Shown: in pieces, positions 297 through 37,800 of the stretch
Numbering within the stretch: position 1 is the first letter of the stretch
How the letters are laid out: the number at the start of each line of letters is the position of its first letter
Assembly (NCBI GenBank): GCA_002633005.1
Contig: NMRA01000308.1
Location: 352,455 to 416,454 of the forward strand
Source: Phoronis australis
Taxonomy: Eukaryota > Animalia > Phoronida
DNA length: 64,000 nucleotides
Reading direction: 5' to 3'
Notes under the pieces: model-generated
Databases searched by the model: none
What the model saw: only the letters and a program-made list of their open reading frames with translations
Told to the model about the DNA's origin: nothing
Program-made: the position numbers and the translations under genes

Positions 297-1435
297 TCAA
301 AGGTCCAGTGGTGACGCCGTCGTCGAACACTTGTCTTTTGGGAAAAAGTAAGTGAGCACGCACTTCTCTTGCAGGTAGGTATTCATAGTGTTATCGCCGC
401 CTAACCGGAATCCTTTGTTGTGGGCCGAGTTACTCTTCGTGGTTTGCAACACTTTGAGATACTTCCCCTTGTCGGTTTCGTTTCTCTGTCGTTGCACTCC
501 TTTACAGCTAAAATGAGATTTACCATCGTCGACGTTTTAGAGGAAAGCGACATGCAGTAGTCCCCTTCAAATTCCAGTTTCAATAAGCCGGGCGTGCGTG
601 TGTCGTAGGCTTCGCTTCCTTCCGTGTCCATTCGCGTAAACCAACGACGTTTTTCCCATTCGAAAGCTGCTTAGATGTCTGGTTTACTCACGTCCCCTAG
701 ACAGTTACCGGATATTGCCATGTACGCCGAGTCTGCTGGAGTCCATCTCGCAATATTCGAAATCGGATTTGTTGACGAATCTTAACATGAAGTCGTAGTA
801 AAACTCCAACATGTGCAACTTCGCGTACTGATAAACAAAGAAGCCTATTTGAAGCGGCAGGTTCAGGCGGATGGTCTTCTTTTTCATCTCCAATTCGCAG
901 GTTCCGTCCCCGATGTAGTTGACGTGTCTAAATTCCGGGAACTGGACTTACCGTTGAACCTTAGCCTCTCCGCAATACTTCACGTCACGGTGCCTTTCTT
1001 GATTCGTTACCGTCTTACCATACGCACTTACCTATTAGCTTCATCGTCTGCGCTACAGTGGTTTTGTTTTTGTCTTTGTCCCCTTCCGGCCTAGCGACGC
1101 TGACTTCCTCACCAAAACACTCGAAGCATTTTACGGGAGCAAATTTGACCACTTGATAGACGTTTGTTATATCTAGGCCGTGTTCCAAGTACCATTTCAG
1201 AAGCGGGGTTGCCAACAGAATTTTCTTACCGAAAAAACTTCCCACCAGATATCGTCGTGGTCGGCTCATGATTTTGTTTCTCTCCGCATACTCCGGCATA
1301 ATGTCTCCTAGGTCGTCTCTGCTGATGTCTACATTCTAGAATATAAGTTGCATTTCTGAAAATCGCTCTCAGATGCCTCGAAACTTAGATGTCACATTCC
1401 ACAACAGAGTACCGTCTAGAGCGAATGCCTTTATT
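297..1435 (-). pseudogene. Polinton/Maverick-type protein-primed DNA polymerase B, C-terminal relic (copy 1, several frameshifts)
   Basis: Fragments KILLATPLLKWYLEHGL, MKLIG, QIGFFVYQYAKLHMLEFYY, YCEMD, RTPGLLKLEFEG and YFFPK fall in different frames; clearly homologous to 10490-11670. Confidence 0.88.
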
Positions 1436-6726: not shown

Positions 6727-9420
6727 GTTCTACCTGACTTCACTGGTTGACAGTTTGCAAATGTCAACTAGCTGATCCAGGTATCATCACAAAAATACAA
6801 ACGCTAGGTTCTACTTGACTCCGCTGGTTGACATTTTGCAAATGTCAACTAGCTGATCCAGGTATCATCACAAAAATACAAAGGCTAGGTCCTACCTGAC
6901 TCCGCAGGTTGACATTTTGCAAATGTCAACTACCTGATCCAGGTATCATCACAAAAATACAAATGCTAAGTCCTACCTGACTCCGCTGGTGGATATTTTG
7001 CAAATGTCAACTAGCTGATCCAGGAATCATCACAAAAATACAAATGCTAGGTTCTACCTGACTCCGCTGGTTGACATTTTGCAAATGTTAACTAGCTGAT
7101 CATGGTATCATCACAAAAATACAAATGCTAGGTTCTACCTGACTCTGCTGGTTGACATTTTGCAAATGTCAACCAGCTGATCCAAGTATCATCACAAAAA
7201 TACAAATGCTAGGTTCTACCCGACTCCGTTGGTTGAAATTTTGCAAATGTCAACTACCTGATCCAGGTATCATCACAAAAATACAAATTAATGCTAAGTC
7301 CTACCTGACTCCGCTGGTTGATATTTTGCAAATGTCAACTAGCTGATCCAGGAATCATCACAAAAATGCAAATGCTAGGTTCTACCTAACTCCGCTGGTT
7401 GACACTTTGCAAATGTCATTTAGCTGATCATGGTATCATCACACAAATACAAATGCTAGGTTCTACCTGACTCTGCTGGTTGACATTTTGCAAATGCCAA
7501 CCAGTTGATCCAGGTATCATCACAAAAATACAAATGCTAGGTTCTACCCGACTCCGCTGGTTGAAATTTTGCAAATGTCAACTAGATGATCCAGGTATCA
7601 TCACAAAAATACAAATGCTAGGTTCTACCTGACTCCGCTGGTTGACATTTTGCAAATATCAACTAGCTGATCCAGGTAACATCACACAATTTAGATGCTA
7701 GGTTCTAACTGACTTCGCTGGTTGACATTTTGTAAATGTCAACTAGCTGATCCAGGTATCATCTCACAAATACAAATGCTAGGTTCTACCTGACTCCGCT
7801 GGTTGACATTTTGCAAATATCAACTAGCTGATCCAGGTAACATCACACAATTTAGATGCTAGGTTCTACCTGACTCCGCTGGTTGACATTTTGCAAATGT
7901 TAACTAGCTGATCATGATATCATCACAAAAATACAAATGCTATGTTCTACCTGACTCCGCTGGTTGACATTTTGCAAATGTCAACCAGCTGATCCAGGTA
8001 TCATCACAAAAATACAAATGCTAGGTTCTACCCGACTCCGCTGGTTGAAATTTTGCAAATGTCAACTACCTGATCCAGGTATCATCACAAAAATACAAAT
8101 GCTTGGTTCTACCTGACTCCACTGGTTGACATTTTTCAAATGTGATTTAGCTGATCCAGGTATCATCACAAAAATACAAATGCTAGGTCCTACCTGACTC
8201 CTCTGGTTGATATTTTGCAAATGTCAACTAGCTGATCCAGGTATGATCACAAAAATGCCAATGGTAGGTCCTACCTGACTCCGCTGGTTGACATTTTGCA
8301 AATGTCAACTAGCTGATCCAGGTATCATCACAAAAATACAAATGGTAGGTTCTACCCGACTCCGATGGTTGAAATTTGCAAATGGCAACTACCTGATCCA
8401 GGTATCATCACACACTTTCAGATGCTAGGTTCTACCTGACTCCGCTGGTTGACATTTTGCAAAATGTCAACTAGCTGATCCAGGGATCATCTCACAAATA
8501 CAAGTGCTAAGTCCTGCCTGACTCCGCTGGTTGACATTTTTCAAATGTCAACTATCTGATCCAGGTATCATCACAAAAATATAAATGCTAGGTCCTACCT
8601 GACTCCGCTGGTTGAGATTTTGAAAATGTCAACTACCTGATCCAGGTATGATCACAAAAATACAAATGCTTGGTCCTACCTGACTCCGCTGGTTGACATT
8701 TTGCAAATGTCAACTAGCTGATCCAGGTATTACCACAAAAAAAGAAATGCTAGGTCCTACCTGACTGTGCTGGTTGCCATTTTGAAATGTGAACTAGCTG
8801 ATCCAGGTATCATCACAAAAATACAAATGGTAGGTTCTACCTGACTCCGCTGGTTGACATTTTGCAAATGTCAACTAGCTGATCCAGGTTTCATCACCAA
8901 AATACAAGTGCTAGGTCTTACCTGACTCCGGTGGTTGACGTTTTGCAATTGTCAACTAGATGATCCAGGTATCATCACAAAAATACAAATGCTAGGTCCT
9001 ACCTGACTGTGCTGTTTGCCATTTTGAAATGTGAACTAGCTGATCCAGGTATCATCACAAAAATACAAATGCTAGGTCCTACCTGACTCCGCTGGTTTAC
9101 GTTTTGCAAATGTCAAGTAGCTGATCCAGGTATCATCACAAAAAATGCTAGGTCCTACCTGACTCCGCTGGTTGACATTTTGCAAATGTCAACTAGCTGA
9201 TCCTGGTATCATCATAAAAATACAAATGCTAGGTCCTACCTGATTCCGCTGGTTGACCTTTTGCATATGTCAATTAGCTGATCCAGGTAACATCACAAAA
9301 ATACAAATGCTAGGTCCTACCTGACTCCGCTGGTTGACATTTTGCAAATGTCATCTAGCTGATCCAGGTATCATCACAAAAATACAAATGCTAGGTCCTA
9401 CCTGACTCCGCTGGTGACAT
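6727..9420. repeat. 81-bp tandem satellite, ~33 copies, each with an internal palindrome
   Basis: Unit CTAGGTTCTACCTGACTCCGCTGGTTGACATTTTGCAAATGTCAACTAGCTGATCCAGGTATCATCACAAAAATACAAATG; no unique spacers. Confidence 0.97.
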
Positions 9421-9747
9421 TTCAGTAGGCCTAAATCTCTAAGACTAAGACTCTTAGTCACTAAGAGTAAGAGGCTAAGTATTACAAAACACATATCCGC
9501 TGTGTTCAACTATTTAAAAACACGCCCTTCGCGAAGTTTTAGTTCTTGAATTCGAGAAATTCTCTGCTGAAACAATAACACTTCGAGAGGAAGTAAAGAC
9601 AGGGAATCCCTCTTGGCATAACGCATGCGCGTGAACTACTTCACTTCCACCTGGATTGGCTCGTTGACGTTGTCCCCCCCCCCTATGAAAGATGATTAGG
9701 GGATAACCACCCAGCTAACTCAACAGATGTCGCGTATACCTAACCCA

Positions 9748-10489: not shown

Positions 10490-11948
10490 TTAAATGTTCA
10501 AAGGTCCAGTGGTGACGCCGTCGTCGAACACTTGTCTTTTGGGATAAAAGTAGGTGAATGCGCACTTCTCTTGCATATAGCTGTACACGGTGTTATCACC
10601 GCCTAACCGAAATCCTTTGTTGAGGGCCGAGCTACTCTTCGTGGTCTGCAAAACTTTGAGATACCTCGTCTTGTCGATTTCATTTCTCTGTCGTTGTACT
10701 CCTTTACAGCTAAAATGCGATTTACCGTCGTCCCTCCCCACGTAATACGTTTTAGAGCAAAGCGCTTTGTAGTAGTCTCCTTCGAATTCCAACTTCAATA
10801 AGCCGGGCGTGCACGAGTCGTAGGCCACGATTGTTTTCTTCTGAGTCTGTTCGCGGAAACCAAAGATGTTTTCCCTCTCGAAAGCTGCTCGCATGTCGGG
10901 TTTAATCACGTCCTCTAGACAGTTACCGGATATAGCCATGTACGCCGAGTCTGAGTTCATCTCACAATATTCGAAATCGGATCTGTCGACGAATCTTAAC
11001 ATGAAGTCGTAGTAAAACTCCAACATGCACAACTTTGCGTACTGATAAACGAAAAAGCCTATTTGAAGCAGCAGGTTCAGGCGGATGGTCTTCCTTTTCA
11101 TCCCCAATTCGTAGAATCCGTCCCCGATGTAGTTGACGAGTCTAAATTCCGAGAGCTGGACTTCCGGTTGAGCCTTAGCCTCTCCGCAGTACTTCACGTC
11201 ACGATGCCTTTCTTGATTCGTTACCGTCTTACCATACGCACTGTTACCTATTAGCTTCATCGTCTGCGCTGCAATAGCTTTGTTTTTGTATTTGTCCCCT
11301 TCCCGCCTAGTGTCGCTGACTTCCTCACCAAAACGCTCAAAGCATTTTACGGGAGCAAATTCGACCACTTGATAGACGTTTGTTATCTCTAGGCCGTGTT
11401 TGAAATACCATTTCGGAAGCGGGGTTGCCAAAAGTTTTTTCCTCCCGAAGAAACTTCCCACTAAAGATCGTCGTGGTCGGCTCATGATTTTGTTTCTCTT
11501 GTCATACTCTCGCATTAACTCTCCTAGGTGTCTCTGCTGATGTCTACATTCTTGAATATATAGGCTGCATTTCTGAAAATTGCTCTCTCAGATGCCTCGG
11601 GACTTCGATGTCACATTCCACAACCCCGAACAGAGTACCGTCTAGAAAGAATGTCTTTATTTGTTTGTTCGCCAAAGTGTAGAAACGTTCCGTAGCTAAT
11701 TCTCGTCTTCTGAAAAAAGAACGTAGGGTATCGTCTTGCCGTTTCAAATCCTCTAATTTGCACTAACCAATCTCTTCGTAATCGAAGCCTTGATCGATGA
11801 TATAGTCTCTAATTTTTCTGGTGTTTTTCATAAGCTCACTCATGGCGACGTTTCCAGTTTCGTTCCTCGTCCTCGGAGTTCCGTCGTCATTTCTCGAGAG
11901 ACGGCAGTCGTGGCCGTACCAGTAACATCCTTGGAATTTCGATAACAT
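10490..11948 (-). pseudogene. Polinton/Maverick-type pPolB relic (copy 2); 341-aa open C-terminal part plus disrupted upstream part with an inserted VSR-like FxGCYWxG domain
   Basis: Motif B KLIGNSAYGKT, motif C YCEMNSDS, TPGLLKLE, LCSKTY, SCKGV; upstream LFGVVECDIEVP and FQGCYWYGHDC are separated by a frameshift and a stop. Confidence 0.9.
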
Positions 11949-12190
11949 GGCGGCGTTCTACAGGAAAAAGGGCGTCGACCTCTTCATGAAGGAATGCATA
12001 AGCGTGCCTGGACTGACCATGAAGATTCTCTTCAAAGATGTCGGTAACGTATTCTTTGCGCTCTTTGAGGAAAAATACAAAGACTTGTATTATACCTTCA
12101 AACATAATATCGTCGGAAGTCCCAGTATTGTTTTCCACAGATACCACGAAAAGGGAAAGACGTTTATACGCCAAAGGGAGATGGAGACTA
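11945..12190 (+). pseudogene. Inverted internal fragment of the same pPolB
   Basis: Plus-strand peptide KECISVPGLTMKILF...KDLYYTFKHNIVGSPSIVFHRYHEKGKTFIR is the pPolB segment that precedes motif A, but it lies on the opposite strand to the rest of the gene. Confidence 0.8.
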
Positions 12191-13317
12191 CGACCCACGT
12201 CGAGGCCGATCGTTAAACTCGTTACCAACTTGACTGTTAACATAACACACATGATTGATCACCCCATCGGCGCACCTGTTTCACTTCCACCATACTTTGC
12301 AGATAATAAAGGCTCTTGGGCGACGACAAGCGACGCAAACGGGAAACACGACGATCGATTGTGTTTCTGGCCGCTCATCGATCGTGATCTCGAAAGGCTT
12401 TAGAGAAGTTGACCAAACAACTTTACGACCAATATCTTCGTCATAAGGGTATCCCATCGAAACAGTTTCAAGGCGTTTTCCTGGGCGATGTTCCAGAACT
12501 GCAAGTCGTGTTTTAAATCAGCATCTCCGCATACGGGTTGGAAGAGTCCGACGGCGGATCGCTTGCTTTGTCGACCGCATCGCCGGTTTGACGACGAACT
12601 TCTTCTCAACTTGAACGAAGACCGACTTTTCGTACATTCACGACATCAAGAAGTGTTGTAGGTCTTACCAATGCAATCTCTGTGGTTCGTGTTGGGATAC
12701 CGCGTGGAAATTATCTAGACACCAACAAACGTGCGAGAACAGTGTGAGGTACGCTTTCCAAGGAAAAACGTGTTTGTTTGCTAATACAGCGTTAGCAATT
12801 TGATCATTGTTTATTAATTAAGCGTTAACAACGGGTTCAATTAAACCTATTACGTAATGAGGTGTGACGTCATTGACACTTCTGTCTGGTAGTCGGATGA
12901 TGTCCCTTCCAATTGCATACATCTCATGTGACCTTTCCTCTCGGATTTATGACCTTTGACCCAGGAGCCTCCCAAATAGGGCGCCTAAACAACTTACTAT
13001 ATTACTAACGTCCAAAATGGAACGAATGATTGAAATTTGTGAATCCTTAAAACGCTATGAATTGCAGAGCCTGCAAAATTTAACGAGTCAATGAATTTGT
13101 AAACTGCAAAGAAATGATGACGTCATGAAATACGAAGAATCGATGAATCTGTAAAATGCGATGTTTTAATGAACCTGCAAACAAGGGGCGAAGTTAGTTA
13201 ATCGATAATCCATGTAATGCTATAAATTAATCACGAATTGCTGAATCGAGTCTTAAGAGTTCTCCAATGCAAAGAATTGACGAAAACATGAAATAGCTGT
13301 CTCGAAATAAAGCCTCA

Positions 13318-15849: not shown

Positions 15850-15960
15850 AGTCACGTGACTGATATTTATTTTAAATACACGCCCCTCAGCAGAGCGCAT
15901 TCATTGTGGCACTCCCGATTTCATTTTCACAGCTTCTGGAAAATACGAATTGCCGATCAG
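15850..15960 (+). promoter_or_regulatory. Candidate promoter and non-coding first exon of the small repeat-peptide gene
   Basis: AGTCACGTGACT palindrome at 15850-15861, TTTAAATA at ~15871, Inr-like TCATT at ~15901, strong CAG|GTAAGG donor at 15960/15961. Confidence 0.45.
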
Positions 15961-17712
15961 GTAAGGCATATATGCGCTTATATGTCAGGTAAGGTAAAAA
16001 TGTATGCACAAATATAGTAACTGAAATAATCCACAACCGGTTTTGAATATTGTGCGATTTTTATTAAAATGTAACATTATTTTCAGACTGAAATTTTCAA
16101 GCAATATTTTAAGATACTAATAATTAAGAACACACGATGCGAAAAATGTCTCAGAAGTAGCTTTAATTCGTATAATATAGTCTTGCATTATATACTACAT
16201 TTTCGTACATTACTCTCTAAAAAGTAAAATTCGTTGGCATTCAACTTGGCCAGCAATTTGGTGGTGCACAAAAAATTCCGAAGTGGTACCCAAAAGTTTA
16301 CATTAAGATATTGGTGTCTAGTTGATGCAAAGTCATTGGCCTTGATTTTATTGATGTATAGCTTTGGCCTAAGCTAATAACTTATGTGAAAATTATTACT
16401 AACGCATGTACATATAAGTTAACTTGAAAAGCTTTACAGTAAGCATAACTGCACGTGGGTTTCCAGGCCCGTAGCCAGCATTGCGCAGGGAGTGGTTCGA
16501 ATTTCTTGACTGGTGGACCTTTGATATTTTACAAACGTCCGTCGAAACCGTGGAGTTTTCATTAAGGGCCTCAGTTGACGCATCTTAATCAAGATGAAGG
16601 AAATTTGTATACGCAACGATGACTCTCAACTCTATGCTTTTGAGATGAGACGGAATTAATAATACCAGAGATGAGATGTCGCAACGTTTGCTTGCAACGA
16701 ACGAGACTCAATTCGGATATAATGTGGTCCAAATCAGGCGTGATTACACCTACTTGGACAGAAATATTTAGTCGGAGAATAACTTGACGAAATTTTTATC
16801 TAGTTATATATTTGTGTGTTACTTAAGTTGCTTACATCGTTGGAAATGGGAACAGCCCACTACTTATCATTCGGTTTGCCATTTAAAACTGCAAACATGC
16901 TTTAGAATTTTATGTAATGTAAACGAAAATAAAACATGTTTTTGAATTTCTGTTGTATTTCATAAAAATTGATATTAACCTCACGAAACCAACGCAAGAT
17001 TTTTTAGTTTTATTACTGTCAGTTTTAAAACACTTAGTGTGAATCTGATGCAAGGTTATAGTCAGTTTGTCACTCAGCTGAAAGAGTGTATTGAAATTAT
17101 CAGTAAAACTAGATAGATGTTGTTACTAATATGACCATAAATTGAAATTAAACTATGTAGCTTTACAATAGACGCGACTTTTGTTCCCTAAAATTTAGAT
17201 CTAATACAAATATGCCAATGTTTTGACAGTATTGTATTTCTAAATTTCACTTTTGATTCATGAATTCAGTGATTACCCAATGTGATCAGATTTCTTCGAA
17301 AAAATCCCAAACGTTTGTAAGAATGTTGAAATGAAAACGACATTAAAAAAATATAATACTGTACTCCGATTCAAACTGATTGATTCAGTTGCGTTTTGTA
17401 ATGTGCCTCGAAATGGAAAGGCAGTTAAAATTAGTAAGATTCACAAGAAAAAGGGCCACATTGGTACCTTTGGACCAGAGATAAGGAAGTCGCCCTTTTT
17501 CTGGGAAAAATGTCACATCACTTTTTCTGGGTACGAAAGTCGCCACTTTCTTAGAAAAAAGAGGCACACCACTATCTCTGGACCAAAGATACGTAAATTA
17601 CCACTTTTTCAAGGAATTTTTTTTTCGACTGCGGCCTAAAAATAGAAAGAAAACTTGGCTGTCCCTTCAATACTTCAGTAACCAATGTCCATGGAACTCG
17701 TATGGTTTCAGA

Positions 17713-18988
17713 ATGAGCTCCTCCCAACAGTCAAAGGGTTATTACGGCGGCACCGGTGACAAAGCCGACCTGGGTAATCATTCCAACCAGTGCAACCCTA
17801 ACCACGGCCAATACCAAGGTCATCAAAGGTGAGTCGGATACCTTTTCTAGTCTTTATGAATTACAGACGCACAGTTGATTCACAAATTTCACGATAGCAC
17901 TTATTTTTATAATTATGCTCAGCTACTATTATTAAACTTTTAATGAATTTTATGGGAACTGACGTCATAGTTAGATTAATCTTAGCTTGTCATCTTGCAG
18001 CAAATACGTAACGACTTATTTAGAAGTTCATGAAAATTGTTTAATCGTCAACATTTAAAGAGGCCTGGAACGCGATAAACAGACTAAATTGCAATAGTGA
18101 AAGTGGTTTCCTGCCACTGAAACAGAATTCAACCTGCTCATCAGGTATTTTTTAGGGTTTTTTCGTAAAGATTTTAAATTTCTGTTGATACCAAAGCGTT
18201 TTCTTTTAGTTTCAAATTTAAAAAAAGATCAGTCAACTATTCGCCCCCTTTTCGATTTTTCTCCCACAAGGCAAAGCACGTCTCCTTATTTGGTATGACA
18301 AGACATTGACGTAGCACATTTCCTTATATGGAAAATACGACCTTTGACTTCAAGCAACTGATTTTGAGCGCATGCGCACATTAATCGTAAGAGGAAAAAA
18401 GATTAGAAACTCTGTGGTAATCACACAAATTTTCCTTCGCGTGTAAATCAAAAATAGTGAATTTTGTGATTGTTTCTGAAAATTTTCTCACAGGGGAAAG
18501 TGAATTACTCTATACTAGACGTTGCAAGATGGTACTTTCTTCAGGAATGGTTTAAAAGTTATTTTTGAAGAGCTTTCGCATTCCACGCCTCTTTAACGTA
18601 AGGGGATTTCGTTTTAGTTTTTAAAGAAATTGTTTATCATAAACCCCATAAACCATATACTTTCTTCCCAGGCGTATTTGCGTTCTCATGGTATCAACGA
18701 GTTTTTTCTGAAGACAAGAAATAAATTTCTCATCTAAGTAAGGAACCAGGTGATACCATTTTTACGACAAGTGGCTAAAATCAAAACGGTTTTTAACAGA
18801 AGACGTGGATTCATTTAACCTTTACAGAAGCAACAGTTGACGCATAATAACTTCTCACTGTTGTTAACGACTCGAAATATTGTGTTTTCAGTGGTTACCA
18901 AGGTACAGGCACCAAGGCGGATTTGTCGAGCCACAGTAACCAAATGAACCCCAACAACCCGCGCTACAACCCCCAGTGGAAGAAGTAG
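17713..18988 (+). CDS. Small uncharacterised 70-aa protein with two YxGTGxKADLxxHSNQxNPN repeats (exons 17713-17828 and 18892-18988)
   Basis: tttcag|AATG start, AG|gtgagt donor and ttttcag|T acceptor (phase 2 matches), TAG stop. Translation: MSSSQQSKGYYGGTGDKADLGNHSNQCNPNHGQYQGHQSGYQGTGTKADLSSHSNQMNPNNPRYNPQWKK. The two repeats differ mainly at synonymous positions. Confidence 0.8.
18059..18592. mobile_element. Kolobok-like MITE in the intron of the small peptide gene
   Basis: TTAA|AGAGGCCTGGAACGCGA ... TCGCATTCCACGCCTCT|TTAA (15/17 TIR match). Confidence 0.75.
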
Positions 18989-19146
18989 GGCATAAACGGG
19001 GAGCTTTCAAAAAGGGACATAGATCTCTTGAAATGTAAATCTGCATAGTACAGAAGACAGAATCAACAGCTTCAACCATCCTTTATAAGTGATTAGCAGT
19101 ACAAAGAATATTTCAACACGCTCATAGTGAAACCTAATATCTAAGT

Positions 19147-19560
19147 TGTGACACGTGCTATAACATCTTGTGACAAATGCTATAACATCTTGTGACACAT
19201 GCTATATCTTGTGACACATGCTATAATATCTTGTGACACATGCTATAACATCTTGTGACACATGCTATAATATCTTGTGACATATGCTATAACATCTTGT
19301 GACACATGCTATAATATCTTGTGACACATGCTATAATATCTTGTGACACGTGCTATAACATGTTGTGACACGTGCTATAATATCTTGTGACACATGCTAT
19401 AACATCTTGTGACACGTGCTATAATATCTTGTGGCACATGCTATAATATCTTGGGACACATGCTATAACATGTTGTGACACATGCTATAATATCTTGTGA
19501 CACATGCTATAACATGTTGTGACACATGCTATAACATCTTGTGACACATGCTATAACATC
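19147..19560. repeat. 22-bp minisatellite, ~19 copies
   Basis: TTGTGACACATGCTATAA(C/T)ATC repeated. Confidence 0.95.
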
Positions 19561-22500
19561 AACGTTTTACTGCAGATATGAATTATTGAAGACGAAATTT
19601 GTAGCAAGGGGTTGAAAATACCTCCGTATTACAATCTCACAGAATTCGAGCTTGTTTAATATTTTTATTATTTTGAAATTGTAAAAAATGAAGTTGTGAT
19701 ATGAACAGACAATTGTAACGAGTAGAGAAGAAAGAAATAAATGAATAAATTGGTGAAATTGGCACGTTCACTTGGTGGCATTGAACAGTTAGGCTGTGGC
19801 GGCGGTCAGTTTGAACTCCCAAAATTTGAAAATCCAGGGGTAGGCCCCTCTAAAATTCTCCCAGATTCCATTTGACAGTTCGGGGGTGCCGAATTTTTGA
19901 CGGCCAAAACCATGGCTAATTCTCTGACCTGCCCCCCCCCCAACTCAAAATCCTGGTTCCGCTCCTTGGACAATCCCGGGGATGCAGCCATCAAGAGTTG
20001 AGTAACCGTGAACCAACACGGAGGGTATACGAATGGGCCTAAGACCAGTTCACTGATCGGTAGCAAGGAGGTGCCTCAATAGCTATAGCTGAGATCTCAC
20101 TGTGGGAAAATACGAAATTCCGGATGAACTAAAGCTAGTTGGTGGTCAGCTTAGCTGTGATTCACTTGAGACAGGCAGCTTGTATCGCCCATCTGCGTTC
20201 GCTCTAAGGTCAAGATTCGTTTTATTGCGCTCCAGCTTCGGGAAAATTTTATTTTATTTTGGTCATTCTTTGAAGGAGTTTTTTCGATGAGGTAAGGCGC
20301 TGAAGTCCCTGTTATAGTGCCTTTGGGGCTATTTCAAAATCCCTCGTTGAAACACGACCGGCAGTCCATTTTCTGGTGGCTGGGGAAAATGATACAGAGT
20401 GTGCCGCAAAAATGTACACACTACAACGCCTGGAATTCAATTTCAGTTGCCGTGGATCACTGAGATTCTGTGCGGGCCTACTGCATGGTTACGTCTTATT
20501 TTTAACGTGGTTGCGTCAGTCATGACGTGCACGAAATCAAGTCAAGCAAACAATTCAGTTTTGAAAAACAAAAATTCATTGGTCAATACTACTGGAAACC
20601 AAAAACACCAAGAAAGTGCAAGGACAACCTTTCCAAGCAATGATTTTAATTTTATTTATTCAAAGTTTTTTTAAAACGTTTTTTCGATCTACGGTTGTGA
20701 GTCCGAATTTCATCAATGTCTGAGAGTTATTTTAGATATGCACAATCGTCTAAGTGTACTTTGCTGTTTGGGGATCTGATTATAGAGTTTTCCAACTTCA
20801 GGCTGCAATTAAATTCACGGAAACATCATCAATTCTTACAAGATTAGTTTCTAATTGTAAAAATCATCTATGAATCTATCGATTTTCGTAGATACATACA
20901 CAAAACGTACCTCGATTGGCGTACATGAAGTAATATCCCACTCGACCTTATTCCGCGTATCGACCGAGACCGAAGAGATATTACTTCATCTACGCCAATC
21001 GAGGTGCGTTTTGTATTTATCCCATGCGCTTCGAATCCCTAAGTTTCTTACATTTTTTCGGCAGATTTTTCAAATACTTCACCCAGACTGTTCACATGGC
21101 AGATCACATCCTATATGTATGTACTTGCGCGTTAGGTTGCAAGTTTTCTCTTGTAAAAGAAACAGAAAAGTAACGATTTATTTCTTGGAAAGAGGTAGCA
21201 AAGATGAAACAAACGGCAACTGTGCAGTGAACTTGTAACATCTCCTGGAAATACTTAAAAAAACAACATTTGATATTTTAGTTTCCTAGGAATCAGCGCC
21301 TGAGTTGCATACGATATAGTATTCAGCAACTGAAAATTGATACATAAGTGTCTTATAATTAACAGTTTTGTTCCAGATTTTACGTTTAGGGCCTGGTTGC
21401 ATGTCGAGTGTTAGTTATACTGCTGCAACTTTAAACTATTTTCAGAAATTTGATGATCGAACCGGTTGAAAACGTTGAGTCGACATTGACCTACCCTTTG
21501 AACTTTCCATGTCAGAGGTCGCTGTTGAAGCAGTGCGGGAGGTGATTATGGAAAACTTTATTACATGGCCGTATTTCCCTCGACAGATTCAACGCGTATG
21601 GGATAAATGTATGTAAACAAGTGAATCCGAACCAGCGAATTTGTTTATCAAAATGGAATATTAAAAGCAATTTCCGCAAGCATGCTCACAGACTTTCGAC
21701 GGGTAATCGGGTACTATGGGAGATGGGGCATTCGTATTAAGGTGTATTTTTGCTTAACTTCCCTCGTGAAAACGGCCCTGTTTCGACAGAGAAGAAAACG
21801 TGACAAATCCAGTGATGTGCATTTCGTTAGGCAAAACCCTATGAAAACTCTTCCGTGCTCCGTTTTGGTCTCATACGCATATACGCGCATAATACATAAT
21901 CTGTAATCTGACAAGTTATCTCCTCATTTTTTCCTCGAAACGCGTCTTCATGTTATGTGACGTTAAACACGTAAGCCTGTATGCAAAAAATGGGAAATTT
22001 AGTTTGTGCGTTTGGCGTCGCCATTTTAAGATGTCAAAAGCCCATGCAACTGAGCAGTGAACTCTGACCCCGGACTCCCTGAAGCGTACGTTTTGTCAGT
22101 TCGTGAAAAAGTGACAATGAAGTCACAACAACACGCGTCAGGTTGAAACGAAACGAGATTATTGGTTTTGTTAGCTGCCTTGTTTCAAATATCATGGACG
22201 TTGTCAATTTATTTCACTACGGTTTATTCAAAATATCTTGAAAGCCTGGTTGAGGTACACAAGCATGTAAAGGAACAGACAAAAATTAATAAAATCCTCA
22301 CATCAAGGTCAATGAATTTGACGTCACGGAAAATTCCTCACAGTCGGGGCATATTGTTAATTTCTTGGAAATTTCACAGGAACTGCAAATCCCTTCCACT
22401 TGCCTTTCTCCCAACGACACTACCAAGTCACGCAAAGGCGCAAGGTTGACCAGTGTAAACAACTGGGCATACGAATGCTCAGAATAACAGTCCGTATGTT

Positions 22501-25500: not shown

Positions 25501-26481
25501 ACAACTCTGAATATACAATATTTACCCACAATGCTGGAGATATGGAGGTTTCACAAGTAGACAGGTATGTGATAAATGTTCTCCGACCCTTCAAAGTAGG
25601 TCACCCTTAGAATACCCATTACTACTTCTGAACAAGGAGAGTTGAATTAGAGGGGTGGTTATTGCAGCAAACATTCTTAAATGCCACTGTTTGCTGTGCA
25701 TGTTGCAGGACTTGGCCACTGTCCAACTATCTGTCACATGGTCAGACTGACAGTTACAGCTGAAGTGAGGATATCCATGGGAGAACAGAGAAGTCACAAA
25801 GACAAGAAAACAAACACACACAAAGACAGAATCGTAGAGCAAATACAACAGAGGCATGGAAAAGTCACTGAAGTTTATGGATGTCCTTAAGTCTTAGTCA
25901 CAATCTAAATTTTAGGGACTGCATCAAAAGTTCCTATTACTTTAAACAGGGACTCAATTATTAAGCCTACGAAAATTAAGCCCAAAAATGAGTTCCAAGC
26001 AAGAAATCATGGAGTATGATGAAGAGAAGTATTTACTGACAATGAGTTATAGTCAGTTTGCATTTCTGAGAAAACTAATTTGAAACTAGAAAACATGAAT
26101 GGATTGCGAGACCTGACCTTTCATTGATTCTTATACAAAACTCTTAAAGGCGAAGGCAACCTTTTTTCATGTCATTTTGAGCTAAAATAAGGTTGGTTGG
26201 TTATCCTTGACATATTTTCCACTTAATTACAGCTTTTCGTAATTTTATTAATTACTCGTCCTCTACTGCGGAAGTGACGTTTTAAGAGGCAAGCGTTTCC
26301 CGCCACTTGGTTTTGCGTTAAGTTTACCGTGCGAATCTGTTCTATTCTACTTTTGTTTTGTGCTGTTTTTCAACAATTGTCGCCACCACTTTCCATCGGC
26401 GAGTATTCTGCGGCAAGATAGGTTAGAAGAGAACTCAACTACGTTGGATTTAGGGATTGTTTAATGTGTTGTAAGCTGAAA

Positions 26482-26790
26482 ATGGATGGAGTCGGAGACC
26501 CGTATCACAGGGACAGTACTGTCAGTGACGGAGACCTTGTTCACAGCAGTGGTGACGAGGAATTTTTTCACGGACATTTAGTGGGTGGGTACATGTTTGA
26601 GCCCAAGTATAACGAGGCAGAGTACGCACAGGCACAGGCAGCTGTTGAGAGAAACGAGGCAGCTACTGAGGACAGATGTGGTGACACATCTTGGTGCAAA
26701 TGCACTTTGTGCGTTGTTATGCCTACCTCAATGGAATGCTTGTGCTGTTCAGAGTTCGACGAGGCCAAGCCACTACTGGACATGGTTAAG
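26482..26790 (+). pseudogene. Truncated P2X7-ballast-like Cys-rich ORF (putative KolX accessory protein)
   Basis: GYMFEP...WCKCTLCVVMPTSMECLCCSE matches the WCxCxxCxxMxTxxExxCCxE zinc-binding motif of P2RX7-like C-terminal domains; similarity stops at ~26790. Confidence 0.75.
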
Positions 26791-27552
26791 TGGACCTCCG
26801 GCATACCACGGACAGAGTAACAACTGTCCCACTTGCCAGAATGTCCCGCGACACACTCCCACTGGATGGTGACCTGAGCACCCAAACTGCTTACATCGTG
26901 TCGTGTGACTCCCTCGCCACACACCTGGCACCTTCTAAATAGCTCCAACACTTTAGACAAGTCCACAATAAACTTACCAAAGTTTGGCTCACCGATCTGT
27001 TCACTGGACGAGGAACTGTCCTCTTCACTGGGTGTCGAACTACTCAATATCGCTGTAGGGCTGCTTAGAGGCTCTGGGCTGGAGAAAACAGCACAGGGCG
27101 AATCACTACTGGTTCCAGGAATGGCACGCTCTGGGGTACGTTCGGAGGCACGGGTGACAGTGGATGAAGTGCCTCCACTGGCTCCAGTCACTGTACTGGC
27201 CACAGCTCACGAGGCTTCTCTTCAAAAACGCACTTCTCGGGGGTGGCGACAGGGAACTGTCGGGAATCAACACAGATGGACTGGCATCCTTCTTCAGGCG
27301 TTGTTTCGCAGGGACCTTCATCAGTTCAGCGTACAAATCCCTTTCGTAATCGGACGGCAGAAAGTGCTTGCCACACACACGGAAATTCTCGACTGCTTTG
27401 TACGTTGCGTGGACGGGTAACGCTGCGTTCTTCACACGAACGAGCCAAGTACTGCGAAGTGTGTCATCCATCGCAAAGCGATGCTAAGGTACTCCCAAAG
27501 CGCGTGTGAGACGATAATGAGTACATCCCGGTACGCAGCAACAGTGTGGCAT
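26788..27552 (-). pseudogene. THAP-domain transposase N-terminal relic
   Basis: MPHCCCVPGC...*HRF...W...RVCGKHF...LKKDASPSV (C2CH THAP with one in-frame TAG), then after a frameshift KFIVDLSKVLELFRRCQVC...CVAGHSGKWDS; the DDE core is missing. Confidence 0.82.
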
Positions 27553-31800: not shown

Positions 31801-34800
31801 AGACCTTTGTCCCCAACTGTTAAATATTGATATATTGATGTATTTGTGAACATACCCTAAGCAGTGTAATTGTAGAACAGATAAGTGAAATTGTTTCCTG
31901 CAAACAGTCCGGGCACTATGGTAGTGATGTTCAGTGCAGCTGATGCACTGTTGTTGTTTATTGAGACATGAAAGCTAGACGCTGAACTGCTACACAGTTA
32001 GTGCCTGCTGAAGCTTGAAAGGCAGCATCATTCAGTAGTCTGCAGAGGTACAGGCTAGCATTACTTGTATGCAAATGTGGAACATGTGATGGGTACTGGA
32101 GTTAAGGCATGGATTCTGCAGGAGAGTCTGAGAATGTAAGAGATCGGTCTAGTTATGAACTGGAGGACATGAAGCCAAAGTGGGGTGATTGATTGGATCC
32201 TTACATAGTGGTATTGAGACAGTTGGTGTTGGTCTCATGTATACAGTTGTGTGTTGTATCGTCACATGAGTGTTCTACAGTGTTGTGATAGACTGAAACA
32301 AAACATTGAACTCAGCTCACTCGACATTGGTACAACAGTAAAGGACAATTGGAAACATGGTTTAAAAGCAACGATCCACTAGAACTCTCCAGTATTTCTG
32401 ACTCTATCAGGGCGACAGAATTTCTTTAAGTTGACGGTGTTTACCATTCGCTTAATTATGTAACATTGTACGTGTCATAGTCTCGTTGATTCATAATTGT
32501 TCATGATGTCGGCTGGTGCATGATATACCTGTTCTAATGTTTTTCCAACTTGTTTATGATTTCAGTGATTTTAATTACTTTGTGATACAAACATTGTTCA
32601 AATCATGTCGCACAATGGTAGTGTTAACTTTAACTTATATTATTTCAAAATGGGTTTGAGGCTGTGGTGTAGAGGCTGTGGTGTAGAGGCTGTGGTGTAG
32701 AGGCTGTGGAGTGACAATACATTCTTCACTTCAAAAAGAGCACAAAATGAGTCAGGAAAGTATTTTCGTCAAGGACTACTGGCTCACCTGAAGCTGGCCC
32801 TTATCTGACTGCTGCTGTTTGATCCCCCCTTGTATTTACAAGTGAGGGTCAGATCTCGTAGGTCGTACAGTCGGATACGAGAGTCATTAGATGTGACCAG
32901 AACCTGCAAACAAGCATTTTCAGAGTACAGAATAATCTGAGGAACCATCCATGAAATTCAAAGTCCTGGATTCTCTAGGTACACTTATGCGAAGATAATC
33001 ACAGGGGAAATGATAAAAACTTATGATGTGCGCACAGAACACGCATGCACAGAATCTTAAATTAATAAACTTTTCTCCATGCTCTCCATTAACTGAAAAT
33101 AAAATCCTTTATCCCCTGCATGCATTCCTCCATTTTCTACTATCTCCACAATTCAACTCAAGAATGCACATGTCCATGCCAGTAGATACCTAATAAGCAC
33201 TTTCTCAGCCAAATTTGAACACCAAAGTTTTTTAATTTTTCATCAGTAATCTGTTTTTAAATTATTTATTAAATATTCAATAGAAGTACTTTTCTGTCAT
33301 TAATATGTTTTTAGGGTCTGAAAACCAACATATTGACCTCAGTGAATGTCAATGATTGGACAATATTCCATTAAATTACTAACCTTATCTTCACCAGGAA
33401 GTGATTCAATTCCAGTTATCTTATGACCTTTGGCATTTTTACCTCTCGTTGACCTCACATTAATCACTGTATAGTACTTCAGTTGCTGTAAAATGTAACA
33501 TAAAGCATTAATAGACAAGTAGTGGGAGTTAAAGGTGCTTTGGGAAATCTTTGGACATAATTAACATAACTACAGCCTGTTAGAAATATAACTACAGCCT
33601 GTTAGAAATATAACTACAGCCTGTTAGAAATATAACTACAGCCTGTTAGAAATATAACTACAGCCTGTTAGAAATATAACTACAGCCTGTTAGAAATATA
33701 ACTACAACCTGTTAGAAATATAACTACAACCTGTTAGAAATATAACTACAGCCTACTAGAAGTATGACTACAGCCTATTAGAAATATAACTACAGCTTAC
33801 TAGAAATAGTCATCTCAAAGAGCAATCTAGTTCAAAAAACTTAAAAATATAATATGTCACATGGCATAATGTTCACATCCTTTCTGTTATCAAACTAAAA
33901 GCCTTTTTGAGCCCAATTTTGTATCTCGACCGAGATCAGATAATTGACTATTCTCGTCTATTTCTGTGACCCGAGTTCCTGTGTGTCAGTTCAGGAATGA
34001 TTCCTGAAAGCCAGTCATGTTGTCCTTGAAAACGTATTGACATCACCGTGAGCATAAAATGTGTTGTTACTTTGTTTGGTTATTCTTGATTCCAAATGTG
34101 GTTCTTTTTATACAAACGTGATTATTTATTGTCCAAATTTTACCTGTTCTTTGCACATGACAAATGATATTTAATGCATAATCATAAGTTTGTGAAGTAT
34201 GTCAAATCTCCCGCAGCCAACACTCTGTACTGCAGTCAGCCCTCACTCATCGCCTAGGGTACGTCAAATTTCAGCAACGGTATCCGTATAGGTAATAAAT
34301 TAGAGGAAAAAATTTCTAGATCAGCAAATGTCTTATCTTTATCGCAATATCATGAAACTGATGCAAAGTAACAGCCTGGAGTGAGCAATTGCCGTGTGGC
34401 AACCCAGACGTGTGAGCACAGTGTGTACTTGGCAGCAAATCAACACCGGCTTTACTAGGCGTTAAAATGTGTGCTACCACGACTAACTGCTGTAATTGTA
34501 AGATTCAACTTTGAATGAAATGTAACCTCATGACTTGACTGTAATATTCAACAGGAATAAAGCGTTGTCCTTTTAACTTGTCTTTCATCCATACAGCTCA
34601 TACCTCAGTATTATAGAATATACACCTTCCGTCATACGTTCCAACCACAGCAAACTTGCCATTCTGGCAGAAGCTTGCAGCTGTGATCAACTTAGTGTGT
34701 CCACTGACTTCATTCCACAGTGCCACCTTCTTGTCAGGAATGTTCCACAACCGCAGTTTTCCATCCAGTGAACCACTCAAGAAGTATCGGTCATCCTACA

Positions 34801-37800
34801 ACCAACCAATGGACACGCTTGATCACAGTCCATACCCCTGCTTGAAGCAAACCCAGTGGTGGATTTAGGGGGGAGGGGGGGCAAAGGGGCCACGCCCCCC
34901 CTAAAATTCTAATTCAAATGCACAATGCATAGGCTTTGAATAATAAGGTCCACAAGCCCAAACATTCAAGACCCCCTATATCCCTACATTTTAGGGATTT
35001 TAGGCTGAGCACGCGCATGAGACGAAATTCTGGTTATTCCTGTACCCTGGCCCCCCTAACTCAAAATCCTGGATCCACCCCTGAGACCATCAGACGCACT
35101 TGATCCCAGTCCATGCCCCTGCTTGAAGTAGAGTTTTGTTCTCAATAACACATCAGTGACAGAAGTATGTTTATCCAACAAACCACGCTAAATACAGCTT
35201 TACACACACGATGTTTAAATTCAATTTGATAATATATGATTGATAATGCCAGCCTTTCAAGTTCTGCACACTTGAATTCTGTATACAATTGTCTGATTAA
35301 CAGTTTCTAAGTTTCTACATAACACAGGAATATGTTGTGCTTTATGATAGTGGGGTGAGCCATGATGTCATGGTTTGAAGTGGAGTGAGCCATGATGTCA
35401 TGGTTAGAAGTAGATGCTGCATGCCATTTTCACGAGGACAACAATTAAAGATTTAGATGTTACCAAAATTATTTTTTTGCAATAGTTAAGGATCAAAATT
35501 ATTCACTTTTTGACAAATGCATGAGAATTGGTATACCAATTTTAATGCATTTATCAAATTTAGGCTAGGTAACTATAGCTATCACCATGGTAACTAGACG
35601 CCATCTTGGAATTTATAGTTAATCATAACTCTGGACTTACGACATTGCATAATCATTCTGTTTGGCATACAACTTTGCAAATGGCTGTTCAGTAATTCTC
35701 CAGATAGACAAAAGAAATTTTCTGTTAAGTGACAGTCAAAAAATCTATTACTAATTTAATAAACAATTAATAATGTTAATTATTTCTTGATCATCAATTG
35801 TCTCTCTTGAAATAATAAATGTACTGGGCACACCAAGTATGACTGTTTCTTATGACACCAAGCTAAATAATCCTTCAATTTCCTATGCCAGTTATAATTA
35901 TTATTATTTTTGCTTGTTTTAATACTGCAGTTGCCCTTACTTCACCATTTACTATTTTTTGCGCATAAATTGAACTTTTATTATGTTCAAACACTTCTTT
36001 GCTAAAAAGATGTGCAAATTTTAAACCTAAAACAAGCCAAGATGAGTAAGTTCTTGAGAAAGAGGTGTGGCCATCTTTGAAATCAAGATGGTGGATCACA
36101 CCATGCACAAAATGTTGAATACCTAGCCTTATTTGGTTTACATAATTACGATAAATACATTGAATACCAACTTCCATGCCTTTATCAAAAACTAAACAAT
36201 TTGTCAAAATTTTGGCTCTCAGTCACTACACTAAAATACTGTTCACTGGTTAGGCCAAAAAACACTGCTCGACAAGATGTGAGTCATTTGAAAGGCTGTT
36301 TGTGTCACTTTAATTATCATTTCCAAGGGTTAGGGCAGCAGTACTTTATGTCGGGAGCGCATTCATTGATATTACTTGTGAACACAATGTCTGACACAAA
36401 CTGCGTTATGTCGTGGCTTCATTATTTCAGTTACATCATTGAAATAAAAGCTCGCAAGAAGACGTGCACCTTTTCTTAGGCTTGTTTACGTCACTTTTGT
36501 ATTGTTGCCAGGGGCAACTGGAATTATAATTAATGTTGAACTAGGGATTTGTATTTTTAGTGAAGGTACCACCAAAAATATCTGCTTTCTCCGTTAAGTT
36601 ACATGATTATTTACCCTTGGATGAAATGCTATGGCCGTGACAAAGTCAATATGTTGAAAGCAGCACAGACACTCCCTTCTTGAAGTATGCCAGAGTCGAA
36701 CAGTTTTGTCCATAGAGGAGGTCAGGATAAAATAGTTCTGCAACAACCACAAAACAACATGCAACATTCATTTTTGCATAATCAAATTCAAGCTGCATAA
36801 CGTCCTTGTTTAGCTGTCAATGTTGAATTCTCAACTGAAGCCCTGTGGGTTTTAAAGACATTACCACACTCATCCTGTCTTGTATTATTGTCACATGAGT
36901 GAGCAGCTGAAGGCACACGCACCATTTTTGAATCCACAATTATAGGGTTGGCTAACCCTAATAAACTGTGAAGTGCTTTCTTAAATAGCTGATAGTTTTG
37001 GTGTTCTTGATGGTGATGGAAATAGAACCCTAACATGGTAAGGGGTATTATGAGATTGATTATCTGAGAGTAAAAGGCAAATTTGAGTTTCGCTTTTAGC
37101 CAGCAAGACAGGATGAAATACAGGTTCAAGTATTTATGAGCATTGTTCATGTTTTGACACTTAAGAGAACCTTCCTCAAATCTTCTTCAACAGCAGTACA
37201 TATTACCCATATGAATTCTAGCATCCAAACAAAGAAATAGAATATTTTTCAATTCTCCTTACAACTGTAACACCTGACCAAGGTAAATGAAGGTTTTGAC
37301 AGCCAATTACATCTCACAAACAAGCAACAAATGCTCACAACTCAAAAATAGGAAAATTGACGCCTTTAAACATTTTATTTTTTACCATATATAAGGCCAC
37401 TTCCATAACATTTAGGCAGTAAGTTTATTCAAGAAATGAAGAAAACATTATGTGTATAGACTAACACATGAAAGAGCTCACTGAACATTTACAAAAGTCC
37501 CCTGCCATCAGTGCAACTAAAAAAGAAACGCAACAAACTAGACAGCCAATACTATGCAACATGTGTCCAGGCAATATCACTGTTATCAACAGGTTACCAA
37601 CCTTGGACCACGACACGTCCAGAACATCAGCAGTATGGCCGCGGTATGTACAGAACGATTTCTTCATGAATGGCGTTAAACTGTCCTCTTCATCAGCGCA
37701 CTAAACATGCAAAGAAACATTAAACGACCATTTTTTCTCTTTTAAGTTATCAGTGTTGAATTCTTAACCATAGCGCTTTGGGATTTCAAGACTTTACCAC

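Follow-up and report, generated by a model that had tools for sequence, protein, structure and literature searches.

A three-exon gene on the forward strand of a Phoronis australis contig encodes a predicted 70-residue microprotein made of two 30-amino-acid repeats, and this microprotein very probably belongs to an undescribed family spanning bacteria, archaea and eukaryotes. What is new is the family and its context; its members are already present in databases as hypothetical proteins. Positions refer to the window, the whole 64-kb stretch of DNA that was analysed.

Structure and transcription of the Phoronis gene

The transcript (+ strand) begins with exon 1 (15914..15960), a non-coding 5' UTR without any ATG, which was defined by a contig of RNA run X2 and two junction reads of run X4; its 5' end is the limit of the RNA contig, and the true start may lie slightly upstream. 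Two RNA-supported GT..AG introns follow: intron 1 (15961..17711; 1751 nt) and intron 2 (17829..18891; 1063 nt, phase 2), the latter with its donor GT at 17829 and an acceptor AG that ends at 18891. Exon 2 (17712..17828) holds the start codon at 17713, with an A at -3 once spliced, codons 1-38 and two bases of codon 39, and exon 3 (18892..19760, end approximate) holds codons 39-70, the stop codon at 18986-18988 and the 3' UTR. The coding nucleotides, 116 in exon 2 and 97 in exon 3, together make 70 codons and a stop, while retention of intron 2 gives an ORF that stops after 39 codons, leaving one repeat. The 3' UTR includes a transcribed 22-nt tandem repeat of 19 copies (19146..19560) and two AATAAA hexamers (19736..19749, starting at 19736 and 19744), which are likely polyadenylation signals; stranded read cover in X3 and X4 reaches the 19600-19783 bin, in which the hexamers lie, and then ends. 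Where exon 1 ends there are two GTAAGG donor-like sites, one at 15961 and the other 30 nt on, at 15991; reads back the first only.

The splice joint 17828->18892 was found in all four public RNA runs examined (X1-X4), in contigs of depth 22,854 in X1 and 18 in X2 and in raw reads in X3 (18 reads from 14 starts) and X4 (10 reads from 7 starts). Two of the four also supported the upstream joint, 15960->17712 (the X2 contig and two X4 reads). In X3 and X4, the first mate of every raw junction read of the microprotein gene is on the - strand, whereas junction reads of a minus-strand WD40 gene in the same window all have the first mate on +, and this opposite orientation places the transcript on the + strand. 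The initial annotation, made from the letters of the window alone, had proposed the gene and named both joints as the reads to look for; its coordinates, splice sites, phase and codon differences all hold, and there is practically no doubt that the spliced gene is real. A second copy was not found within the 64-kb window.

Expression differs greatly between runs. In X1 the junction contig has a depth of 22,854, against 6.7-24.9 for contigs of the neighbouring WD40 gene (about 1000-fold), and in X3 there are 18 junction reads against 1-5 (about four times), although the depth of a contig reflects expression only poorly. The difference between these two excesses suggests strong regulation, and with it tissue- or condition-specific expression of the animal gene.

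Repeats, codons and selection

Repeat 1 (residues 11-34; 17743..17814, + strand) comprises a YxGxG flank, an N-H-x-x-Q element on a helix predicted from the homolog P0003, Cys at +1, an NPNH turn and Tyr at +8, positions being numbered from the Gln of that element (Q0). In repeat 2 (residues 41-64; 18896..18967, + strand), codon 52 specifies Ser at a position that is Asn in 98% of the family. The likeness between the repeats is above chance, with a best 20-aa identity of 15 against at most 9 in 30 triplet shuffles. Selection at the protein level, which had been proposed from the synonymous codons of the two exons, is borne out by a pS of ~1.1 against a pN of 0.26 and by different codons at 11 of the 15 residues identical between the repeats. 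The same proposal ascribed the repeats to an old exon duplication; the duplication is indeed ancient, but it need not have been exonic, because the layout of two 30-residue repeats is family-wide and the repeat also occurs in intron-less prokaryotes. The predicted absence of a signal peptide and hydrophobic core also stands, as the best 9-residue Kyte-Doolittle mean is -0.53.

Four coding differences are among those listed between the window and X1/X2, three synonymous and one changing Ser52 to Asn, and a further 406 differences were found in the stretch. The Ser52 change corresponds to a Ser/Asn polymorphism at position 18930, the near-invariant -4 of repeat 2: Ser is found in the window and most X3 and X4 reads, and Asn in the X1 and X2 contigs and 2 of the 18 X3 reads. 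X2, which carries a second organism label, contains the whole spliced ORF (15914-19206 of the window) in a 305-nt contig with 8 differences, reflecting either a close relative or a labelling difference.

A repeat family without a name

Exon 2 alone as query retrieved one 65-aa protein, P0003, which contains both repeats and whose cluster includes Ridgeia piscesae. P0003 in turn retrieved 22 short proteins, and a profile search from these against 1.84 billion representatives gave 466 clusters at E<=1e-3, of which 141 also passed E<=1e-10. A search for homologs, as the initial annotation had suggested, thus shows that the peptide is not an orphan. Its closest relatives are annelid and mollusc proteins; the nearest homolog is P0003, which is identical to the Phoronis peptide at 44 of 54 residues and has both repeats, spaced as in that peptide. 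Named members derive from annelids, bivalves, a sea slug, ants, springtails, a barnacle, a rotifer, Euglena and dinoflagellates, and most rows are without a name. Homologs already deposited without a family name include Ridgeia KAK2190604.1, Lamellibrachia LSAT2_007558, Mercenaria LOC123563437, Atta XP_018046276.1, Mytilus CAC5402415.1 and Nylanderia ADE27969.1.

Two repeats are present in 135 of the 172 sequences examined, with a spacing of 30 or 31 residues (30 in the Phoronis peptide) in 119 of 164 gaps, a share that is biased upward because the profile favours two-repeat proteins. Across the family, the number of repeats ranges from one to four, and the spacing of 30/31 is of eukaryote type, with 18 in many bacterial members. 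Q0, N+2 and P+3 reach 100% in the tally because they formed the search anchor, which 170 of the 172 sequences had; they are also nearly invariant in an unselected alignment. N-4, N-1, N+4 and Tyr+8 lie outside the anchor, and N-4 is conserved at 98% in both repeats. Insect members read NPTH in the turn, and self-cleavage of the kind that occurs at N-P in FlhB was considered for them.

Pfam, searched with the two exon peptides, 25 members and 16 longer proteins, held no family for the repeat. At E<=1, the 25 members matched nine Pfam families, of which the most recurrent was Semialdhyde_dhC_1 (16 of 25 members, best E 2.8e-5), whose matches were treated as compositional. NCBIfam (16 + 26 proteins) and PHROGs (8 proteins) likewise assigned the repeat to no family. 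PDB sequence searches gave no matches at E<=10 for two family queries (A2 and A4) and designed proteins only for a third (A5), and the ESM Atlas gave only 'hypothetical protein' clusters, under 0.9. No match was found among annotated phages, and plasmids gave three matching records, all unnamed. Searches of the main text of largely open-access papers, by motif, accession and genomic context, gave nothing relevant, so members might stand in small-protein catalogues beyond its reach. The initial annotation could put no name to the family, and none emerged from Pfam, NCBIfam, PHROG, the PDB or the papers searched.

Two longer homologs (P0052 and P0057) are labelled 'DNA polymerase beta', in which a polymerase domain was not seen by eye; a Pfam or NCBIfam match was not found for P0057. 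An animal-type two-repeat protein, P0020, is labelled Salmonella/Enterobacteriaceae; the 25 contigs that carry it are 818 bp or shorter, and it is likely a contaminant of those assemblies.

Prokaryotic and viral members

A scan of 185,579 species genomes gave at least 601 pattern matches, with ~1200 estimated, which makes the family patchy, at under 1% of species by that estimate; 124 of the matches were confirmed by tblastn and 80 were kept. By record titles, the prokaryotic members span Bacteroidota, Firmicutes, Proteobacteria, Chloroflexota, spirochaetes and archaea, and 19 loci are on viral contigs. Most prokaryotic copies stand alone as ORFs of 30-70 aa that hold a single repeat or two, and 26 of 47 gaps have the 18-residue spacing. 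They behave as genes under purifying selection: identity between pairs is 0.73 and 0.81 at first and second codon positions but 0.41 at third positions, the 25 closest pairs have a pN/pS of 0.05 (with pN lowered by the choice of segments by motif), and 44 of 93 starts follow a Shine-Dalgarno-like word, vs 187 of 1860 random positions. Contamination was considered as the source of the prokaryotic matches and rejected, as one copy (L015) is flanked by archease and thioredoxin genes within an archaeal chromosome of 2.39 Mb, and several others are from cultured isolates.

The animal-type YxGxG flank is present in only four of all fetched loci, every one from Nitrosopumilaceae archaea. Over 25 residues, the archaeal copy L004 shares 18 with Phoronis repeat 1 and 17 with repeat 2. 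The flank and this likeness hint at a transfer between Nitrosopumilaceae archaea and eukaryotes, in either direction.

Four loci (L056:4778-4918, L060:4850-5002, L039 and L080) have, beside the main gene or merged with it, a divergent sister peptide whose turn is NANKG-like and which bears a terminal NRGKQLNP motif.

Genomic context

Across 99 loci, neither a constant neighbour nor a conserved prokaryotic operon was found. Several copies lie inside defence operons, in the same orientation as the flanking genes and closely spaced. In L146-L148 the copy is between cas6 and cas8b, 21 and 20 nt from each, with its own ribosome-binding sites, and in L153 a one-repeat form occupies the same cas6-cas8b position as the two-repeat form of L146. 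Other copies precede cas5c (L150), overlap the hsdS stop 12 nt before hsdR (L057), lie between hsdM and hsdS (L134-L136), precede brxA-brxB of a BREX system (L088) or follow abiEii (L063 and L069), and an archaeal copy (L016) is coupled to a ThiF-like gene and faces a convergent SIR2 gene. The operon-internal examples in L128-L153 came from one sub-clade query and are not a random sample. The defence systems vary by locus, many copies are among housekeeping genes, and the neighbours, drawn from many systems or none, do not have the fixed gene content of one PADLOC anti-phage system. A literature search on a small gene between cas6 and cas8b found nothing. An RNase III-like gene lies just upstream in L012, L030, L041, L052, L083 and L088, which belong to one clade and are not independent.

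As a control, 22 genome loci on contigs of at least 170 kb were compared with a 10-kb stretch ~100 kb away on each, using PADLOC on ORFs of at least 150 aa (161 of 163 test ORFs, two motif-bearing proteins being omitted, and 152 of 152 control ORFs). Unfiltered matches at E<=1e-15 occurred at 12 vs 7 of 22 loci, which is not significant (p=0.22). After a post hoc filter that dropped kinase, ABC ATPase, OmpA, ThiF, RmuC and oxidoreductase matches, the figures were 11 vs 3 of 22 loci (p=0.022). The overall enrichment near defence genes is modest; the link to defence is suggestive rather than established, and hitch-hiking in variable islands could account for it.

Fusions and domain company

The repeat is fused to the C-terminus of a protein family with a GS..DxD..D signature, which was read by eye in nine aligned proteins, 19-31% identical to the first, and is taken to be nucleotidyltransferase-like. 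The family had no NCBIfam, PADLOC or PDB assignment. This fusion recurs in L128, and in L129 and L130 a separate microprotein gene lies directly downstream; the members noted are L077:4374-5144, L128-L130, P0092, P0113, P0127 and P0135. In P0067 the repeat is N-terminal to a second nucleotidyltransferase-like domain, with similarity to a CCA-adding enzyme (E 3e-7) and a CBASS cyclase (E 4e-4), both below the cut-off. RGG tracts flank the repeat in rotifer and dinoflagellate members.

Further fusions, some of which may be gene-model artefacts, involve membrane proteins, HTH proteins, tetraspanin tails, PLAC8, a Hint domain and springtail glycine-zipper proteins. Several proteins of 200-370 aa, unrelated to one another, carry the repeat as an N-terminal tag that is located at residue 9. 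Ten unnamed proteins of ~365 aa (P0102, P0120, P0122-P0126, P0132, P0136 and P0145) have one N-terminal repeat followed by an acidic run, and an NCBIfam match was not found for P0124 or P0136. Judged by eye, P0078, P0087, P0226 and Flavobacterium proteins have apparent signal peptides or a preceding membrane anchor; in P0226 the apparent signal peptide is followed by a pro-region, a dibasic cleavage site and two repeats.

Predicted structure

AlphaFold2 on P0003, used as an animal-type stand-in, predicted helices at residues 13-23 and 43-52 (mean pLDDT 77.6, pTM 0.43; other models 54-66), and a bacterial member with 18-residue spacing was predicted as a helix-turn-helix (pLDDT 72.5, pTM 0.41). 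These models support local helices and not a fixed tertiary fold, and as there is no confident packing between the repeats, the free protein is probably largely unfolded. A fold search with the animal-type model gave no match and the bacterial-type model a best Z of 2.9, which shows neither a new nor a different fold. A homodimer prediction scored 0.02 and gave no usable answer.

Proposed function

The family may act as a small nucleic-acid- or nucleotide-binding module in stress or defence, a reading to which a probability of roughly 0.35 is assigned. Base or nucleotide binding is the first choice because of a PUF-like residue triad, the nucleotidyltransferase fusions, the RGG neighbours and the nucleic-acid-acting operons. 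Each 30-aa unit would form a short predicted helix followed by an NPN[N/H] turn; on the helix face N-[H/R/Y]-x-x-Q, the Asn and Gln would read a base edge and the His, Arg or Tyr would stack, in the manner of PUF proteins, and two repeats would raise avidity. More tentatively, and by analogy with the prokaryotic context, the animal gene could be a strongly regulated cytosolic response gene. A stress-related role had been among those raised for the peptide on first inspection, and the prokaryotic gene context adds a possible link to defence.

In the PUF five-residue code, positions 1 and 5 are reported to bond the base edge and position 2 to stack (PMC5961129, PMC8384837); NHQ and NYQ are described as natural uracil triads (PMC8384837), and in the helical 12XX5 code stacking is ascribed to Tyr, Arg, His and Asn (PMC5961129). 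The microproteins resemble the PUF proteins described there in having a predicted helix with Asn, a stacking His, Arg or Tyr and Gln at positions 1, 2 and 5, and in being built of repeated modules (PMC8384837, PMC5961129). Among 318 repeats, the triad is NHQ in 220, NRQ in 73, NKQ in 14 and NYQ in 2 (309 together), and it lies on the predicted helix of both animal-type and bacterial-type members. PUF proteins, however, consist of about eight 36-aa three-helix repeats, which this family does not have; its units of 18 or 30 aa have one short predicted helix each, occur in one to four copies and end in a fixed NPN turn, and its 25 searched members did not match the PUF profile at E<=1. With the rest of the PUF architecture absent, the five-residue triad is weak evidence for base reading, and if the reading is right, the microprotein would work like a single PUF recognition helix yet would not be a PUF protein. 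Net charge is unconserved (pI 4.3-10.0 between the 10th and 90th percentiles), and the apparent signal peptide or membrane anchor of some members is a poor fit to nucleic-acid binding.

A rather unlikely alternative is that these proteins are hydrophilin-like protectants, small Gly-rich hydrophilic repeat proteins that fold on drying or crowding and shield proteins or membranes. Hydrophilins are defined by Gly above 6% and high hydrophilicity, and the Phoronis peptide (Gly 14%, GRAVY -1.71) falls within this compositional definition, as do 62 of 74 short members (Gly >6% and GRAVY < -1). The variation from one to four repeats, the several apparent compartments and the large expression differences between runs are also consistent with it, and LEA and KGG-repeat hydrophilins are described as similarly small, Gly-rich, very hydrophilic, repeat-built and patchy over the domains of life (PMC7139818). 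Against this, 25 members had no LEA, KGG or CsbD match at E<=1, the strict N/Q/P conservation, position by position between archaea and animals (18/25 identical), exceeds the needs of a compositional role, and placement inside CRISPR and R-M operons is left unexplained.

It is also rather unlikely that the repeat is a protein-binding adaptor or inhibitor, a helix-NPN unit that docks on a conserved protein surface and serves as a mobile mini-gene or terminal tag tuning the joined enzyme. Its use as an N-terminal tag on unrelated proteins, and its place at the C-terminus of membrane, HTH, tetraspanin and glycine-zipper proteins, would fit this role, and short conserved helix-forming motifs commonly fold on a protein partner. 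The absence of a constant neighbour gene across the 99 loci argues against it, as does a conserved face made almost entirely of polar amides with little hydrophobic surface. TPR is a 34-aa two-helix repeat with a small/large hydrophobic pattern, and bacterial members resemble it in an A-x-x-L-N-P-N-N helix end and turn followed by aromatic and Gly residues; TPR_17 gave a weak, sub-threshold match to one fusion protein (P0065, E 0.053). The microproteins differ from TPR in having a polar N/Q face and neither the 34-aa two-helix repeat nor the hydrophobic pattern.

A metal buffer, in which Zn, Cu or Ni would be bound through the His, Cys and Met residues of the helix and turn, is improbable for the family. 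Metal binding had been one of the roles raised for the peptide on first inspection, and it is possible for the Phoronis member, whose repeat 1 has H-x-x-x-C and His at +5 and whose repeat 2 has H-x-x-x-M; His is also found at -3 in 90% of second repeats. The three first-repeat ligands (His/Cys/His) occur together in only 16 of 130 proteins, unlike the conserved Cys/His ligand set of metallothioneins; His is swapped for Arg, Lys or Tyr and Cys for Leu or Met, while Asn and Gln are the most conserved.

Amyloid signalling by a prion-like motif of the HET-s/BASS kind, the amyloid-like nature first suggested for the peptide, is highly improbable: its two repeats, Asn+Gln content of 26%, terminal position on glycine-zipper and membrane proteins and defence context resemble the short, N/Q-rich, terminal and cross-domain motifs described near defence genes for HET-s and BASS11 (Bab/Agp) (10.1101/2024.11.07.622273), but it is disfavoured by a fixed proline (Asn-to-Pro changes are reported to abolish BASS11 function in the same source), by the predicted helix, though AlphaFold2 does not model amyloid states, and by mostly stand-alone genes without adjacent motif-sharing pairs, a second motif frame being above threshold in only 1 of 139 motif-bearing loci, as a small paralogue and not a receptor-effector pair.

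Other features of the window

The window has a GC content of 38% and many tandem repeats, including an 81-bp array of 33 copies at 6727-9422. The spliced WD40-repeat gene (32000-40400, - strand) has four CT..AC joints in X3/X5, its exon at 39413-39556 matches WD40 proteins, and it presumably resembles WDR44. Family-B DNA polymerase-like pieces at 10493-11587 (-), 1018-1335 (-) and 11926-12400 (+), which form at least two similar copies with a weak PDB match (E 0.17), are taken to be remnants of a Polinton-type element. At 26422-27483 a Cys-rich ORF on the + strand and further ORFs on the - strand presumably represent THAP and P2X7-tail-like transposon genes, and 27109-27483 had no PDB match.

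Implications

The fullest version of the nucleic-acid-binding proposal, in which the microprotein would be a minimal base-reading, one-helix counterpart of PUF in CRISPR, R-M and BREX operons and the animal gene a strongly inducible innate-defence gene of invertebrates, is decidedly unlikely; if true, prokaryotic and animal immunity would have a further, new component in common. It is rare for a 25-residue motif to keep ~70% identity from an archaeon to an animal, and motifs that do so usually bind something universal. The family has hundreds of members, which are too short and intron-split for ordinary annotation, and should the defence link fail, it would still be a new and widespread family of small proteins.
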